A stretch of 64,000 nucleotides of DNA from contig DAICZS010000005.1 of assembly GCA_027311025.1 (NCBI GenBank), positions 7,784 through 71,783 on the forward strand, read 5' to 3'. Below, in pieces: positions 51,779 to 57,904 of the stretch (position 1 is its first letter; each line of letters begins with the position of its first letter). The position numbers and the translations under genes are program-made. The notes below the pieces were generated by a model, which saw nothing but the letters and a program-made list of their open reading frames with translations, was not told where the DNA came from and made no database searches. This DNA comes from Ferrovaceae bacterium (lineage in GTDB: Bacteria > Pseudomonadota > Gammaproteobacteria > Burkholderiales > Ferrovaceae).

Positions 51779-52975
51779 TCAGACGTAGGTCAAGCCGTGT
51801 TGTGCCAGTCCCACGAGGCCAATATGGTCCTGGTTGATCTGGGTGGTCGCAGCAAGCGCCAGCAGCCCTGCCTGGCTGTAGGTGCCGTTATCCAGCAACC
51901 CCTTGAAAGTGGCCAGGTTGGTGGCGTCAATAGGCGAGCCCACGACGTTCAACCAAACTGCCTGTACGAAGGAAGCGTTGTCATGCAGCGTACTCACGGC
52001 CCCTGTATTGATGGCCAATTGGGCCACTTGGGCCATGGTCATGCCTGAATCGAACAGCTGCAACCCAATGCCAACATAGGACGGGTTCTTGGTAATGGAA
52101 GCTGCGCCAAAGGCCGCACCCAGTATTTCTGCAGTTTGTCCGCCGGACTGCGTGGTTCCCGTATCAAAGGCGAGGGAGACATCAGAAAACTTGATGCGCT
52201 GAATATTGACCAGTGCGTCCGTACCCTGGGCCCCTGTGGTGTCTTGCACGGTCAATCCGCTGGTTGTGTGGGTAATGGTGAAGTTGGCGGACTTGCCGTT
52301 GTAGATCACCGTGTTGATCCCACCGCTGCCGCCCGTAAAACTGTCGTTGCCCGGACTGCTGGTAAAGGTGTTGTTGCCTGGTTTTCCTGTAACGTTGAAT
52401 GCCGAGGCAACGGTCAGGTTAAAGGTATCCGTGACGCTCAGGTTGAGTGAATCCGTCATCTTGATGCTGATGCTGTAGGTGCCAGTACCCGGCGGGGTGC
52501 CGCTGAGCGTGTCAGCAGCCGGATCAAAAGTCAGCCACGAAGGCAGCGCCGCACCGCTGGACAGGGTGGCGTTGTAGCTGGGGGTGGCGCCCACATTGGG
52601 ATCGCTGAAGGTACTGGCGGGAACCACCAGTTTGAAGGGCATCCCGTAGACTGCAGACTGGTCGGCAATGAGGGTTGCAACCGAAGGGGGCACCGTGCCG
52701 AAATACGTGTTGAGGTTGACGGTCACGGTATCGCTATTGAACTTGAGATACTGAATATCCTTGAGTGTCAGGTTGTACGGGCTGCTGGCACCCGACACCG
52801 AATCCACGGTCACTGACTTGTCAGGGTTTTGAATGATGGTGAAGTTGGACTGCAGCCCCTGCAGAAAATCCACCGTATTGTTGGTGAACGCGGCGTTCCC
52901 GATAATGGTGTAGGTCAACCCTCCTGGAGGAATGTTGGCCAGATTTTGGGCACCGGTGAGTTGAAGTGTCGGCAT
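51779..52975 (-). CDS. hypothetical Thr/Ser/Asn/Gly-rich repeat protein (cadherin-like Ig module, Ca-binding-repeat-like modules, DUF4214-like C-terminus), no signal peptide
   Basis: 398 aa. ATG after GAGGAC. Modules: SGAALPSWLTFDPAADTLSGTPPGTGTYSISI (putative Ig / dystroglycan-type), GNDSFTGGSGGINTVIY...GTDALVNIQRIKFSD, and FVQAVWLNVVGSPIDATNLATFKGLLDNG. Confidence 0.6.
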   Translation of the reverse strand: MPTLQLTGAQNLANIPPGGLTYTIIGNAAFTNNTVDFLQGLQSNFTIIQNPDKSVTVDSVSGASSPYNLTLKDIQYLKFNSDTVTVNLNTYFGTVPPSVATLIADQSAVYGMPFKLVVPASTFSDPNVGATPSYNATLSSGAALPSWLTFDPAADTLSGTPPGTGTYSISIKMTDSLNLSVTDTFNLTVASAFNVTGKPGNNTFTSSPGNDSFTGGSGGINTVIYNGKSANFTITHTTSGLTVQDTTGAQGTDALVNIQRIKFSDVSLAFDTGTTQSGGQTAEILGAAFGAASITKNPSYVGIGLQLFDSGMTMAQVAQLAINTGAVSTLHDNASFVQAVWLNVVGSPIDATNLATFKGLLDNGTYSQAGLLALAATTQINQDHIGLVGLAQHGLTYV

Positions 52976-53009
52976 GGTATTGTCCTCATGAAATCAGAAG
53001 AAATGCGCT

Positions 53010-54824
53010 TCAGAGCGCAAGGTATTGCGTCAGGTGTTCCAGGAATCTGTCGGGTTGTTCATACCCGATGACCCTGCTGTTGGGGACTTCCCTGCCCGCA
53101 GCATCAAAAAAAAGGATCCCTGGCGGGCCAAACAAGCTGAATCTCTTCATCAGCGCGCGATCGTCTGCTGTGTTGGCCGTGACATCCACCTGCACGAGCG
53201 TGATGCCACGCAAATGGCTTGCAACCGCTGGATTGCTGAACGTGAAACGCTCCATCTCCTTGCACGACACGCACCAGTCCGCATAAAAATCCAGCATGAC
53301 GGGGTTCCGGGTCGTGGACAGGACCTGGTCCAGCTGGGAGATCGACGAGATGCGCTGAAAGGAAACGGCCTTTTCGGTCGGGGCGTTGCCAGTGGCCAAG
53401 GACTTGAACCCTTCCAGGGGCTGCAGCACATCAACGCCTCCGACGGCAGCACCCGCCAATTCAAAAATGCCGACGATGAAAGCCAGAATGCCCAGCGATC
53501 TCGAAAACCGTCGTGCCACCGAAACCTGGTCGGGGGGAGTATCGAAAATTCGCAGGAATACCGCGCACAAGATCGCGAAAGCGCCCCACATTGCAAGGAC
53601 AGCTGGTGCCGGCAGAATGGGTTGAACCATCCAGAGTGCGACCGCCATCAACATCAAGCCAAAAGTGTGCTTGACCGCGACCATCCAGGCCCCGGCGCGG
53701 GGCAAAAGCCGCCCTGCCGACAGCCCGATCAGCAACAGAGGTACGCTCATGCCCATGGCCATGGAAAAAAGGGCCAACCCGCCCAATACCACATCGTGGG
53801 TTTGGCTGATGTAAATCAGCGCGCCGGCAAGTGGGCCGGCCACACAGGGCCCCACGATCAGGGCAGAAAATCCGCCCATCACGAACACGCTAAGCGTTCG
53901 CCCACCCTGCAAGCGATTGCTGATCTGGTTCAGGCGCCCTTGAAATGCACTGGGCATCTGCAACTGGTACACGTCAAACAGGGACAGGGACATGGCAAAC
54001 AGCAATGAGGCAAACAACAGCAACACCCAGGGCTTTTGCAAGGCACCCGCAAGCCCCTCACCAGCAAGCCCCGCAGCGATGCCGAACAGGGTGTATACCA
54101 GCGCCATGCCCAGGCAATAGGAAAGCGCCAGCGTAAAGCTGCGCGCACGCGTCACCTCACGCTCGCCCACCACGATGGCAGCCAGAATGGGGACCATCGG
54201 GAGCACACAGGGGGTAAAGGACAACAAAAGCCCAAAGATCATGAAGGCAAAACCAATGGTCCACAGGCTGCCGCTGGCGAAAATCTGATGCACCGTGGAG
54301 GGTTGTTCCTGAACGGAAGCGCTGTTCTGCGCGACAGGCTGGAATACAGCCCCCTCCTCTGCCAGTGCGGTCAATGCGCCAGACTGCCCGGGGCTCAAGC
54401 GAAACCGTCGTTCCACCGGCGGATAACACAATCCTGCTTCAGCGCAACCCTGGTACGACACGGCCATGAGCGCGGATTCGCCCTGCAGTTCCACAGGGAC
54501 AGCCACATCGAGTTTCTGGTGGTAGATCTCTACATCCTGATCGAAATTGTCGTCGTGAACGCGGAACCCCTTGGGCAACACAATATTGCCCAGGGTCGCC
54601 CCGCCGCCCACGGCAGCCAGGTGCACGCGACCCCGATATAGCTTGTAGCCTGGAGCAATGTCCCAGTGAAGCAACAGCCGATGCTCTGGCGTATAACTGG
54701 CGCTCAGTCGAAAAGCCGATTCCGGGCTGAGGAATTCGTCGGAAGCACTGGCAGAATGACCAAAGAGCAGGGCCAGCATCGCACCCAGCAAGGCAATTTG
54801 GATGAGTGAATGGAGTCTATTCAT
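53010..54824 (-). CDS. dsbD: thiol:disulfide interchange protein DsbD (transmembrane electron conduit)
   Basis: ATG 54824 (MNRLHSLIQIALLGAMLALLFGHSASA). Three Cys pairs: nDsbD GCAEAGLCYPP, TM FTPCVLPM, and C-terminal thioredoxin DWCVSCKE. Confidence 0.9.
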   Translation of the reverse strand: MNRLHSLIQIALLGAMLALLFGHSASASDEFLSPESAFRLSASYTPEHRLLLHWDIAPGYKLYRGRVHLAAVGGGATLGNIVLPKGFRVHDDNFDQDVEIYHQKLDVAVPVELQGESALMAVSYQGCAEAGLCYPPVERRFRLSPGQSGALTALAEEGAVFQPVAQNSASVQEQPSTVHQIFASGSLWTIGFAFMIFGLLLSFTPCVLPMVPILAAIVVGEREVTRARSFTLALSYCLGMALVYTLFGIAAGLAGEGLAGALQKPWVLLLFASLLFAMSLSLFDVYQLQMPSAFQGRLNQISNRLQGGRTLSVFVMGGFSALIVGPCVAGPLAGALIYISQTHDVVLGGLALFSMAMGMSVPLLLIGLSAGRLLPRAGAWMVAVKHTFGLMLMAVALWMVQPILPAPAVLAMWGAFAILCAVFLRIFDTPPDQVSVARRFSRSLGILAFIVGIFELAGAAVGGVDVLQPLEGFKSLATGNAPTEKAVSFQRISSISQLDQVLSTTRNPVMLDFYADWCVSCKEMERFTFSNPAVASHLRGITLVQVDVTANTADDRALMKRFSLFGPPGILFFDAAGREVPNSRVIGYEQPDRFLEHLTQYLAL

Positions 54825-54831
54825 GAGGGTG

Positions 54832-55740
54832 TCAGGCTGTGGCTGGTGTAACGCTGGTGGCGTTGCGAAAGGTGTTTCCATGGTGATCGATGGCAAAATA
54901 GGGAAAGCCCGTTTCGTTCAAAAAGGCCAGGCCATCCTTCTCCTTGAGCATGGCGATGGTGGTGCAGCTACCTGCGGCAATCGCAAGCGGAGCCAGCACG
55001 CTCACCGAACGCCAGTGAGAGACCGGCATCCCCGTTTTGGGATTGAGGATGTGGCAATAGCGACGCCCATCGCGTTCGAAGAAACGCTCATAATCCCCAC
55101 TGGTAGCCAGGGCGCCGCCCGACATGGGAATGGTGGCAATGAGCTGGCGCTCCCTGGGATGCTGTATTCCGAAAGACCAGGCGCTGCTGTCGGGCTTGGG
55201 GCCGATCACACGGATGTCTCCTCCCAGATTGACGTAGCCATGGGCAATGCCGGCATCGATGAGGATCTGGGCGGCACGGTCAGCGGCGTATTCCTTGCCA
55301 AACCCACCAAAATCGATTTCCATGCCCGTCCTGGACAGCCTGACGTTGTCGCTCTTCAAATCCACATGGGACCAGCCGATTTTGTCCAGCAGCGGGCGCA
55401 ATTCATTCTGATCTGGAACGCGCGGTGTATTGAAGTTCCAGGCGCGGCGCAGGATGCCTGAGGTGATGTCGAACAATCCTGCACTCGTGCGGTACAAGGT
55501 ATCGGCATACCGAAGCAAATGCAGCGTTTCCTCGTCACAGGCCACCCATCCCAATCCTGCGGCAGCGTTGATTTTCGACACCACACTGTCCTTCAGGTAC
55601 CTTGAATACTTCGTCTCGATGCGCAGTACTTCGTCGATGGCGTGTTGCGCCTTCAGTGCGGCTTCTGCTTCCGTGGCGTCAGCCAGTGCGATTTCACACG
55701 CACAGGCCATGGCTTTGAATTGGCGGACGGTAACGTTCAT
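54832..55740 (-). CDS. apbE: FAD:protein FMN transferase (ApbE family)
   Basis: ATG 55740, 1 nt after the DUF3570 stop. ApbE blocks FGGFGKEYAADRA, NLGGDIRVIG and LATSGDYERFF..DGRRYCHILNPKTGMP. No N-terminal hydrophobic signal. Confidence 0.88.
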   Translation of the reverse strand: MNVTVRQFKAMACACEIALADATEAEAALKAQHAIDEVLRIETKYSRYLKDSVVSKINAAAGLGWVACDEETLHLLRYADTLYRTSAGLFDITSGILRRAWNFNTPRVPDQNELRPLLDKIGWSHVDLKSDNVRLSRTGMEIDFGGFGKEYAADRAAQILIDAGIAHGYVNLGGDIRVIGPKPDSSAWSFGIQHPRERQLIATIPMSGGALATSGDYERFFERDGRRYCHILNPKTGMPVSHWRSVSVLAPLAIAAGSCTTIAMLKEKDGLAFLNETGFPYFAIDHHGNTFRNATSVTPATA

Positions 55741-55741
55741 G

Positions 55742-56923
55742 TCAGAAAAGACAGGACAATCCAAACTGGATGCTGCGCGCACGGAATGGATCCAGCGGAA
55801 CGCTGTTGCCCATCACGCTCCAGTTATTACGCTGTTCATACTGCTCGTACTTGATGTCGGCCAGCCAGTCTGAACCAATCTTTTTGGAGACCTTGAACCC
55901 CAGCGTGATGGCGCCGAACGAAGAGAGTCGTTGATCCAGCGAATAGTAGGTGGAGCCATAACTTGGAAACGTGGGATAAGGTCGCGCCGTAGGGTCTGGT
56001 TCAAGGTAGAACCAGGCGGCTGACTGCGAGTAGAGACGAACTTCAGGAGTCAGCATCCATCCCGATGCGGTGGGCTGATCGTAGGATGCGTTCAGCGTAT
56101 GCGCGCGGATGTCGTAGGTGTCACTGTAATACCGATAAGACAGATGCCCGGTTCCCTCCGTGGCATGGAAGAAGTGGTTCCAGAGCAGCATGGCGGTGGT
56201 ATGGTTGCGTGATCTGGGCCGATTGTCGAAGATCTTGTAGGGGTCTGAAAAATAGCCGTCACCCATGGAATGCCCCAAATCGAACTGGGCAATGTCCTGG
56301 GGAGTGAAGACCTGGGTCACACCCGCGAGCATGTCCAGAACATGCTTGCGCTCCCCTATCACGATCTTGTTGACTGGGTTGATTTCATCATTGGACACCG
56401 CAGTGCCGAAATTGAAGGTGGTGTTCTTGTCTTCCGTGGAAAGCGTGCCCTGTGCTGAAAGCCCTTGGGAAATGTAGTCCGACTCCTTGGAATATGAGGC
56501 CCCGACGGTAGCTGTGCCTTGTGAAAAATAGCGTGTCAGTGAGACATCCTCGGCGCGACGCAAATCGTGCATTTTTGGAAACTTGCCGTTGCTGTCGTAG
56601 GTGTAATAGCGCGGCGAAGCGCCTGAAATGGAGTCCGTGGTGTAGGTTCCCGTCACCGCCCATTCCCCTGCAAGGGGCACCATCACCATGGCCGAAGTGG
56701 CGCCCACATGGATTCTGTTTTCGCCCGGTTGGCTGTCCTGATAGTCCAGGTAACGCAGGCTCATCAGACCACGATCAGGGGCAATCTCCGCCACAGCTGG
56801 CTTGAGTGTCATCAAACTCATGGCAGCGAGCAAAATCGCCGGGCCAGAAGCTGAAGCGTTACTTGCCGATGCCCTGGCAGGTTTCAGGAGGTGGCGAACC
56901 TGCTTCAATTTCCTCAGTTGCAT
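55742..56923 (-). CDS. DUF3570-family protein, probable outer-membrane beta-barrel, candidate ApbE substrate
   Basis: 393 aa. Signal-like ...GPAILLAAMSLMTLKPAVA|E, DSISGAS motif at residues 97-103, alternating beta-strand pattern, and a C-terminal ...IQFGLSCLF with terminal Phe. Confidence 0.75.
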   Translation of the reverse strand: MQLRKLKQVRHLLKPARASASNASASGPAILLAAMSLMTLKPAVAEIAPDRGLMSLRYLDYQDSQPGENRIHVGATSAMVMVPLAGEWAVTGTYTTDSISGASPRYYTYDSNGKFPKMHDLRRAEDVSLTRYFSQGTATVGASYSKESDYISQGLSAQGTLSTEDKNTTFNFGTAVSNDEINPVNKIVIGERKHVLDMLAGVTQVFTPQDIAQFDLGHSMGDGYFSDPYKIFDNRPRSRNHTTAMLLWNHFFHATEGTGHLSYRYYSDTYDIRAHTLNASYDQPTASGWMLTPEVRLYSQSAAWFYLEPDPTARPYPTFPSYGSTYYSLDQRLSSFGAITLGFKVSKKIGSDWLADIKYEQYEQRNNWSVMGNSVPLDPFRARSIQFGLSCLF

Positions 56924-57153
56924 CCGCAGCCTCCGCCACCCACGCCAGAGCCGCCCGAGGCGCCTTCCTTGCTTGAATAAATATGTTCTGTAAAGGCGCT
57001 ATCCAGGGGATCCTGGCCAAACATCATTTCAGGACGCGCCAGATCCCCCTTTTCCCAGGGCTGTACCGGTGCCGTCGTGGCACAGCCCGATAACAGGGCC
57101 AGGAAAACGAAACGCACGCCGCCTCTTCGTACATGAACCCAGTGCGCGTTCAA
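56914..57153 (-). CDS. DUF4266-family small lipoprotein
   Basis: 79 aa. TTG start in a TTGA overlap with the tlpA stop (GTG 57117 is the alternative). Lipobox LLSGC. C-terminal tail GASGGSGVGGGGCGCN. Confidence 0.7.
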   Translation of the reverse strand: MNAHWVHVRRGGVRFVFLALLSGCATTAPVQPWEKGDLARPEMMFGQDPLDSAFTEHIYSSKEGASGGSGVGGGGCGCN

Positions 57154-57656
57154 TTGCGTTGCTCCAGGGCCGAAGTGATGATGCGTTCGAGATCACCACG
57201 ATCCTTGTTGTTAAAGCCCATGTGCTCTGAAATGATCTTTCCGTCACGCCCGATGAGAACACTGGTGGGCATGCCCTTCACCTGATATTTGCGAGGCGTA
57301 TCGCCGTTGGGATCAAAAGCCACGATGAATGAAGCGGGCGTTGTCGAAAGGAACCGACGGCCATCTTCCGACTTCATGTCGAGGTTGATGCCGATCACCT
57401 GGAGCCCTTGCTTTCCGTATTTCGCCTGCATTTCATTCATCCAGGGAAAGGATTGCTTGCACGGTCCACACCAGGAAGCCCAGAAATCCAGATAAACCAG
57501 CTTGCCGCGGTATTGGTCCAGATTGACGGCGCCATCTGCTCCGGGTAGCGCAAATTCGGGGGCTGTTCCAGCATTTCCTGCCGAAAATGCTGTCAGGGGG
57601 AAAAACATCAGGCTATTTATCGTTAATACTATGAATAATAATGATATTTTTTTCAT
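57150..57656 (-). CDS. TlpA/ResA-type periplasmic thiol:disulfide oxidoreductase (thioredoxin fold)
   Basis: ATG 57656 (MKKISLLFIVLTINSLMFFPLTAFSA signal). Active site WASWCGPCKQSFP. Confidence 0.85.
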   Translation of the reverse strand: MKKISLLFIVLTINSLMFFPLTAFSAGNAGTAPEFALPGADGAVNLDQYRGKLVYLDFWASWCGPCKQSFPWMNEMQAKYGKQGLQVIGINLDMKSEDGRRFLSTTPASFIVAFDPNGDTPRKYQVKGMPTSVLIGRDGKIISEHMGFNNKDRGDLERIITSALEQRN

Positions 57657-57739
57657 TTTTTCTTTCACCTCTAGCCAGTGGGCGTGTCGTGACACCCCCT
57701 AAGGAAATGCTTCTGTGGATATGTATGGGATTTTTTCCC

Positions 57740-57767
57740 ATTATATCCAGTTGCATCAACGCGTCAA
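57740..57767 (-). promoter_or_regulatory. near-consensus sigma70 promoter of the tlpA cluster (TTGACG-16-TATAAT)
   Basis: Minus strand reads ttgacg cgttgatgcaactgga tataat. The -35 is at 57762-57767 and the -10 at 57740-57745. Confidence 0.6.
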
Positions 57768-57808: not shown

Positions 57809-57842
57809 AAAAAAAACGCACGAAGCCCGAGAGCTTCGTGCG
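57809..57842 (-). terminator. Rho-independent terminator of purA
   Basis: Perfect 10-bp stem cgcacgaagc / gcttcgtgcg (57817-57826 / 57833-57842) with a 6-nt loop. An 8-nt U-run follows on the minus strand (plus-strand A-run 57809-57816). Confidence 0.85.
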
Positions 57843-57904
57843 CGAGGATCGCGTCAGTGAACGGCTATGAGGAGAAAGCAGGAATCAGCTAAAGCGGTGG
57901 CCGT

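Follow-up and report, generated by a model that had tools for sequence, protein, structure and literature searches.

A predicted flavin site on a DUF3570 outer-membrane barrel encoded beside a leaderless ApbE in a Ferrovaceae bacterium

The window analyzed here is a stretch of 64,000 nucleotides from a Ferrovaceae bacterium of the order Burkholderiales (GenBank assembly GCA_027311025.1, contig DAICZS010000005.1, positions 7,784 to 71,783 of the forward strand). It encodes a protein of the DUF3570 family, a predicted outer-membrane β-barrel, next to the gene of ApbE, the enzyme that transfers flavin mononucleotide (FMN) from flavin adenine dinucleotide (FAD) to proteins. The DUF3570 protein carries the ApbE acceptor motif DSISGAS at a nearly invariant position of the family, and its Ser103 is very likely flavinylated by the adjacent ApbE. 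Because this ApbE, the sole copy of the genome, has no export signal, attachment of the FMN probably takes place in the cytoplasm and precedes export of the barrel precursor by the Sec pathway.

The acceptor motif and its conservation

The gene and its predicted flavinylation site are located as follows.

55742..56923, minus strand: DUF3570 gene, encoding the 393-residue precursor of a predicted 16-strand outer-membrane β-barrel (Pfam PF12094, AlphaFold and Foldseek)
56615..56635, minus strand: ApbE acceptor motif D97-S98-I99-S100-G101-A102-S103 (strand reading, family conservation and the motif rule of PMC12052999)
56615-56617, minus strand: codon TCG of Ser103, the last residue of DSISGAS and the predicted FMN phosphoester site

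The gene product matches the Pfam family DUF3570 (PF12094) with an E-value of 1.9e-55 and a score of 188.8 bits against a cut-off of 25. Its nearest named relative, encoded by a Ferrovaceae metagenome-assembled genome, is 92% identical, and 1,442 relatives were counted in the representative set at E ≤ 0.001. An earlier inspection of the letters alone, here called the sequence-only reading, had placed DSISGAS at residues 97-103 and predicted Ser103 as the acceptor. The minus strand from 56635 to 56615 indeed reads GAC TCC ATT TCA GGC GCT TCG, and the heptapeptide fits the acceptor consensus D-x-x-[S/T]-G-A-[S/T]. According to a 2025 review, FMN is attached to the final Ser or Thr of this motif, and the seven residues are enough for recognition (PMC12052999), so that Ser103 is the predicted site.

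Conservation within the family, which the sequence-only reading had left to be checked, was analyzed by aligning the query with 105 full-length representatives (27-68% identity) from an exhaustive HMMER search, 106 sequences in total. The motif proved to be near-invariant. Position 97 is Asp or Glu in 106/106 sequences, position 100 is Ser or Thr in 101/106, Gly101 and Ala102 are found in 106/106 and 105/106, respectively, and position 103 is Ser or Thr in 106/106, followed by Pro104 in 104/106. The core [ST]GA[ST] stands at this column, that of the first site, in 101/106 sequences. In a 67-sequence alignment with a mean column identity of 32%, Gly101 and Ala102 are among just twelve invariant columns. 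In addition, the motif is present at the same position in all 120 closest homologues (47-99% identity).

A short degenerate pattern may also turn up by accident. In a crude set of 2,008 open reading frames from the same genome, the loose pattern D-x-x-[ST]-G-A-[ST] occurs 6 times against 3.8 expected, and by itself it is not beyond chance in this genome. The instance in the DUF3570 protein is taken as real because it is conserved across the family at the same column. A chance match was ruled out by this family-wide conservation, which extends down to 27% identity, and the motif-bearing gene adjoins apbE; we therefore give this explanation practically no weight. The peptide TTDSISGASPR, which the sequence-only reading had proposed for the detection of an FMN adduct by mass spectrometry, turned out not to be tryptic. 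The nearest upstream Lys or Arg is R70, and trypsin yields the peptide I71-R105 of 35 residues.

The barrel fold and the position of the flavin site

Two further features of the DUF3570 protein are needed to place the site.

56789..56923, minus strand: Sec-type signal peptide, residues 1-45, with a basic n-region, the hydrophobic GPAILLAAMSLMTL and an A-V-A cleavage motif before E46
56576..56617, minus strand: loop L2, residues 103-116, between strands 3 and 4 (predicted secondary structure and alignment)

The signal peptide, already recognized in the sequence-only reading, was called by eye from its basic n-region, its hydrophobic core and the AVA preceding E46. The core comprises 14 residues; A33, A34 and L37 are nearly invariant in the alignment and A45 is invariant. 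In the AlphaFold model, residues 1-44 are disordered with a predicted local distance difference test (pLDDT) score below 50. A twin-arginine-like N-terminus was found in just 7 of 226 homologues and is absent from the window protein; judged from these sequences, the signal peptides of DUF3570 proteins are of the Sec type and not of the twin-arginine translocation (Tat) type. Export by Tat, which would have reconciled a cytoplasmic ApbE with an exported substrate, was rejected on the same count.

The AlphaFold2 model, computed from a 119-sequence alignment, has a mean pLDDT of 87.3 and a predicted template modelling (pTM) score of 0.82, and consists of sixteen β-strands. The top Foldseek matches in the PDB are all outer-membrane barrels (FadL, CymA, PgaA, PelB, BcsC and OmpG) with template modelling (TM) scores up to 0.50, and no closer structural family was found among them. 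The C-terminus reads ...GLSCLF as had been claimed, and the terminal residue is aromatic (Phe, Trp or Tyr) in 199 of 223 homologues, as in the β-signal. The sixteen-strand model, the fold matches and the aromatic C-terminal residue together bear out the earlier reading of the protein as an outer-membrane barrel. In two genomes of the same order (G157:C1:2067376-2068914 and G175:C25:8021-9577), the DUF3570 match lies inside frames of 912-923 residues, about twice the usual length, which suggests a DUF3570 barrel fused to another domain.

In the model, the motif forms the final residues of strand 3 (residues 88-102), and Ser103 opens the loop L2 (residues 103-116, pLDDT 60-74). The connections on the side of the motif comprise 2, 14, 3, 9, 14, 4, 35 and 14 residues, and those on the opposite side, where the N- and C-termini are located, comprise 2-5 residues. 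By the usual convention for outer-membrane proteins, the termini and the short turns face the periplasm. Since the motif is on the long-loop side, this convention would place the flavin site at the extracellular mouth of the barrel, provided that L2 is not folded inwards into the lumen. The 12 invariant columns without exception, and 15 of the 18 columns conserved at ≥ 90%, are on the motif side, within its loops or within the upper two-thirds of the β-strands, and no column at ≥ 90% conservation falls in a short turn. Ordinary porins vary most in their outer loops. In the DUF3570 family, by contrast, these loops show the highest conservation, which suggests that the flavin is surrounded by a functional pocket.

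A single ApbE without a leader sequence

The transferase is encoded immediately downstream of the DUF3570 gene.

54832..55740, minus strand: apbE, encoding FAD:protein FMN transferase (Pfam ApbE, E-value 2.8e-77), with the likely start codon ATG at 55740

This start lies just beyond the stop codon of the DUF3570 gene (55742-55744), and the longest open reading frame extends to 55782. From the likely ATG, the protein begins MNVTVRQFKAMACACE, which is already aligned with the first conserved block of the family; the E. coli ApbE model aligns to it from profile position 32 on, that is, after the lipoprotein signal. Neither a signal peptide nor a lipobox was found in the window ApbE by inspection of the sequence and a hydropathy scan. 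A longer frame hiding a signal peptide was considered and rejected, as the residues added by extending the frame as far as possible, to 55782, are hydrophilic and are encoded within the DUF3570 gene. Orthologues likewise begin 3-15 residues ahead of the conserved F-x-A-M block. We surveyed 57 distinct ApbEs encoded beside DUF3570 in several phyla and classes. No hydrophobic N-terminus is present in 51 of them even at the longest conceivable start, 5 were flagged solely through implausible upstream starts or a script artefact, and a genuine signal peptide is present in a single one, from locus L078 (32% identity, encoded on the opposite strand). As judged from the sequences, 56/57 of the DUF3570-linked ApbEs are thus leaderless.

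The genome (2.2 megabases, 99.3% complete) encodes exactly one ApbE. Whole-genome family searches turned up neither another ApbE nor a classical substrate elsewhere, with no FMN_bind, NqrB/RnfD or DUF2271 gene found in the genome. This is an orphan-apbE situation, the same as that in which DUF3570 was discovered as a substrate. The flavinylation of Ser103 by the adjacent ApbE is the part of our interpretation that we hold with the most confidence.

For the cellular place of this reaction, the missing export signal favors the cytoplasm, and recognition, which requires just seven residues (PMC12052999), is compatible with such an early attachment. Cytoplasmic ApbEs exist, as in Klebsiella pneumoniae (cited in PMC12052999), and the Sec pathway exports preproteins that already bear Ser-linked phosphopantetheine or biotin (PMC3418276). 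In the published co-expression experiment with a DUF3570 protein (PMC8238504), most of the protein ended in the cell pellet and denaturing conditions were used for its purification; it was flavinylated all the same.

Alternatively, Ser103 might be flavinylated in the periplasm, with the leaderless ApbE exported by an unrecognized route or with another enzyme acting after Sec. Where ApbEs acting on exported proteins have been characterized, they are lipoproteins of the periplasm, Salmonella ApbE failed to complement when made in a cytosolic form (PMC12052999), and unfolded barrel precursors do pass through the periplasm. However, the only ApbE of this genome begins directly at the conserved domain without any hydrophobic segment, a property shared by 56/57 linked ApbEs from four phyla or classes. 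The donor FAD is moreover a cytoplasmic metabolite, and ApbEs working in the cytoplasm are known from K. pneumoniae. We therefore regard a periplasmic reaction as improbable, and attachment in the cytoplasm before Sec export as the probable course.

Published DUF3570 proteins and the number of acceptor sites

The sequence-only reading had called an FMN-carrying barrel an unusual combination. The combination is real, but it had already been published for DUF3570 (Méheust et al. 2021, eLife 10:e66878, PMC8238504). That study began from orphan apbE genes in genomes without an FMN-binding-domain protein, found DUF3570 beside them, and noted two conserved [S/T]GA[S/T] motifs. The DUF3570 protein of Chlorobium luteolum DSM 273 (ABB24424.1) was flavinylated upon co-expression with its cognate ApbE (ABB24423.1), as read out by ultraviolet fluorescence in sodium dodecyl sulfate polyacrylamide gel electrophoresis, and the signal was gone only after Ser-to-Ala mutation in both motifs. 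The gene cluster described there consists of ApbE, DUF3570, a thioredoxin-like protein and DUF4266; 227 such clusters also include DsbD and 316 lack it. DsbD was proposed to feed a hybrid thiol/flavin system, and the function was called uncertain. DUF4266 was described as a CXC protein, and VIT1 iron transporters were found in 25 clusters. The main text of PMC8238504 contains no barrel or porin label, no statement on the side of the flavin and no phrase 'cytosolic ApbE'. Beyond that paper, our literature search met DUF3570 in a bacterial gene neighborhood in a single further paper, and there only in passing. Flavinylation of DUF3570 and the exact gene cluster were thus published in 2021, and the window protein is a further, one-site member.

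Similar to the window protein, the C. luteolum protein belongs to the same Pfam family, carries the acceptor motif and is encoded next to apbE. Homologues from Chlorobiaceae other than DSM 273 share 47-52% identity with the window protein, and Ser103 is aligned with the first of their motifs. The two proteins differ in that the C. luteolum protein has two modified sites, whereas the window protein retains the first site only. In relatives, the second [ST]GA[ST] follows 10-40 residues further downstream, within L2 and directly before the conserved D-x-R-x-A that starts strand 4. In the alignment of the 105 representatives, the query reads S-N-G-K where relatives align this second motif (SGAS).

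Two strict motifs are present in 43/106 sequences and one in 46/106; of the 120 nearest homologues, 87 carry a single motif and 33 carry both. By these counts, the second [S/T]GA[S/T] is found in about half of the DUF3570 members and does not define the family, and the first motif is the universal one. The window protein belongs to a large, probably derived, one-site subgroup. A single site should suffice for flavinylation, because single-site mutants of the published homologue still fluoresced (PMC8238504).

It might be argued that the motif in the one-site clade has been kept for a structural or another ligand-binding reason and is not flavinylated, given that the tested homologue is a two-site protein and that the second site has been lost in the window protein. 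Several points stand against this. The retained site is the better conserved one, with its core in 101/106 sequences as compared with about half for the second motif, and at least 24 loci retain the translational coupling of apbE with a one-site gene. In the homologue, either site alone still gave a signal (PMC8238504). In addition, without the DUF3570 or the RTX-like protein described below, the ApbE of this genome would have no recognizable substrate. We consider such a non-flavinylated motif very unlikely.

A deviating arrangement was observed in a Chlorobiaceae locus (L008, 5956-8816), where two DUF3570 paralogues flank a DUF4266 gene and one of them has an additional DTVSGAS in an insertion before the usual site. 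No ApbE or TlpA is encoded there within about 6 kb upstream or about 4 kb downstream of the paralogue pair.

An RTX-like neighbor with the same motif

A second occurrence of the motif was found in the gene that follows dsbD.

51779..52975, minus strand: gene of a signal-less RTX/Ig-like protein of 398 residues, located after dsbD (Pfam He_PIG, weak RTX repeats)
52784-52804, minus strand: D58-S-V-S-G-A-S64 in the N-terminal module of the RTX-like protein (tight-pattern genome search)

The tight pattern D-[ST]-[ILVM]-S-G-A-S occurs twice in the genome against about 0.04 expected from the product of residue frequencies, and the two instances are those of the DUF3570 and the RTX-like protein, with no others. 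Relatives of the RTX-like protein carry the Pfam domains Big_5, HemolysinCabind and DUF4214. Its N-terminal module of about 95 residues belongs to no Pfam family; 15 further betaproteobacterial loci encode a homologous module adjacent to their DUF3570 cluster, and a search of a large database found at least three close relatives of it. The D..SGAS stretch is the best-conserved block of the module. The AlphaFold model of the RTX-like protein is modest (pLDDT 72.9), and in it the site ends a strand and leads into a hairpin loop. A hidden Markov model (HMM) of the module weakly matches the flavinylation region of DUF3570 proteins (E-values 1e-3 to 4e-6), in the following open reading frames.

L004, residues 88-115: module-HMM match in the DUF3570 protein
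L005, residues 83-112: module-HMM match in the DUF3570 protein
L072, residues 85-111: module-HMM match in the DUF3570 protein

Because the module HMM matches DUF3570 in this way, the acceptor contexts of the two proteins are alike beyond the seven-residue core. Elsewhere in the genome (contig C22:20432-23092), a complete type I secretion pair is encoded, consisting of a PrtD-type ATP-binding cassette (ABC) exporter (753 bits) and an adjacent HlyD-type adaptor, and this pair could export the RTX-like neighbor. The RTX-like protein is a possible second substrate of ApbE, and its motif would fit a cytoplasmic ApbE that serves two exported substrates.

The gene cluster and its surroundings

The remaining genes and the signals around them are listed below.

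57150..57695, minus strand: tlpA, encoding a TlpA/ResA-like periplasmic thioredoxin with WCGPC (Pfam Redoxin, E-value 2.1e-21; NCBIfam ResA/TlpA)
56914..57153, minus strand: gene of a DUF4266 lipoprotein with the lipobox LLSGC and a Gly-rich tail GGGGCGCN ending in CGCN (Pfam PF14086, E-value 5.5e-24)
53010..54896, minus strand: dsbD, encoding the inner-membrane thiol:disulfide electron transporter DsbD (Pfam DsbD_TM, E-value 4.7e-90, and DsbD_N; NCBIfam 577 bits against a cut-off of 330)
57740..57767, minus strand: promoter-like site TTGACG-16-TATAAT upstream of tlpA (consensus scan, 11/12 matches, a pattern match only)
57816-57843: terminator-like hairpin of purA, just before the promoter-like site (consensus/hairpin scan)

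The genes tlpA, DUF4266, DUF3570, apbE and dsbD are all on the minus strand and abut or overlap. The order tlpA-DUF4266-DUF3570-apbE is kept in most loci of Betaproteobacteria, other Pseudomonadota, Chlorobiaceae and Verrucomicrobiota, the last represented by one genome. Strains of Methylovorus, Duganella and Undibacterium are among the relatives with the cluster. In the DUF4266 lipoprotein, no Asp follows the lipidated Cys; by the sorting rules of E. coli, the lipoprotein would probably be sorted to the outer membrane. Its Gly-rich tail SKEGASGGSGVGGGGCGCN could reach the lumen of the barrel. A weak terminator-like hairpin (53004-53019, minus strand) overlaps the dsbD stop codon, and transcription of the RTX-like gene that follows may be independent or may come from read-through.

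Comparison with known redox systems

All five components of the 'DsbD system' clusters of PMC8238504 are present here in the same orientation, with the same proposed entry of electrons through DsbD. The window adds the RTX-like neighbor with the same motif and the one-site barrel, and nothing essential differs. The NqrC and RnfG FMN_bind domains of Na+-NQR and RNF are modified by the same class of enzyme at the same motif, with the FMN phosphoester on the last residue (PMC12052999). They are, however, small soluble or inner-membrane-anchored domains that are modified in the periplasm by a lipoprotein ApbE, whereas the window combines an unrelated barrel fold with a leaderless ApbE. The ApbE of K. 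pneumoniae, which acts on a soluble fumarate reductase (cited in PMC12052999), likewise has no signal peptide and works in the cytoplasm. The K. pneumoniae substrate stays in the cytoplasm, whereas the substrates predicted for the window have export features, namely the Sec signal of the DUF3570 protein and the RTX repeats of its neighbor.

A further comparison is one of working principle, with no homology involved. Porin-cytochrome conduits of the MtrCAB type use an outer-membrane barrel to position redox cofactors at or across the outer membrane. In Mtr, the haems are on separate proteins threaded through a 26-strand barrel. The window system would instead carry a single FMN, predicted to be covalently bound on a loop of a 16-strand barrel, and its donors would be thiol proteins.

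Proposed mechanism

We propose the following course of events for the DUF3570 system. The ApbE encoded beside DUF3570 would transfer FMN from FAD to Ser103 as a phosphoester, in the cytoplasm and on the unfolded precursor. The flavinylated precursor would then be exported by Sec and folded by the BAM machinery into the 16-strand outer-membrane barrel, which would bring the flavin to the end of strand 3 and the start of L2, at the long-loop mouth and within a ring of family-invariant polar residues. As suggested in PMC8238504, electrons might be relayed from cytoplasmic thioredoxin through DsbD to the TlpA-like thioredoxin, from there to the CXC tail of DUF4266, and on to the FMN. The last acceptor would lie extracellularly or within the lumen; a metal ion and the neighboring RTX-like protein are candidates. 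For this chain as a whole, comprising the flavinylation of Ser103, its cytoplasmic timing, export by Sec and BAM, a flavin at the surface mouth and a thiol-to-flavin relay, we estimate a probability of about 0.6.

Some points weigh against this chain. The experimentally tested homologue has two sites, and the flavinylation of the one-site window protein is a prediction. The two-site proteins aligned with Ser103 were Chlorobiaceae homologues other than ABB24424.1. No direct precedent for the cytoplasmic flavinylation of a Sec substrate was found in the literature. The assignment of the sides of the barrel comes from the outer-membrane protein convention, and L2 may point outwards or enter the lumen. 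Attachment before export, the direction of electron flow and the physiological acceptor are, all three, what we infer, and the function was likewise called uncertain in PMC8238504.

A different role of the flavin has to be weighed as well, in which the FMN is a lumen- or periplasm-accessible cofactor that forms a local thiol-flavin couple with the CXC thiols of DUF4266 or those of TlpA, without any relay across the outer membrane. Most of the operon encodes thiol-disulfide proteins, namely DsbD, TlpA and the CXC protein of the DUF4266 family. It is also common for long loops of outer-membrane barrels to turn back into the lumen, and no acceptor gene was identified. Nevertheless, the barrel end that is most distant from the periplasm is where the site and almost every invariant residue are located. 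The conserved signal-less RTX-type neighbor with the same motif, together with type I secretion in the genome, suggests instead an extracellular partner. A purely local couple is thus rather unlikely, though it deserves more weight than attachment in the periplasm.

The relay towards the cell surface can be extended to a wider scheme, which we put forward tentatively and at somewhat less than even odds. In this scheme, a dedicated leaderless ApbE would flavinylate its substrates in the cytoplasm, the barrel would bear a surface flavin, a type I-secreted RTX partner would be the second substrate in Betaproteobacteria, and a thiol-fed relay would lead to the cell exterior. Neither a leaderless ApbE, nor attachment before export, nor an extracellular partner of the DUF3570 system was found stated in the literature searched.

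Significance

The interest of the system lies in an attaching enzyme that apparently works in the cytoplasm on a substrate destined for export as an outer-membrane barrel, and in a flavin that, together with the invariant residues, is placed at the outer end of the barrel, with a betaproteobacterial neighbor of the secreted type that repeats the motif. If the proposed mechanism holds, it would be an example from nature of a cofactor being attached ahead of Sec export. The one-site form, in a small, ApbE-orphan, Ferrovaceae-like genome, would be a simple subject for testing it. For the bacteria that possess the cluster, the mechanism would mean a flavin route for electrons to the cell surface, one that is fed by thioredoxin and not by quinones or cytochromes.

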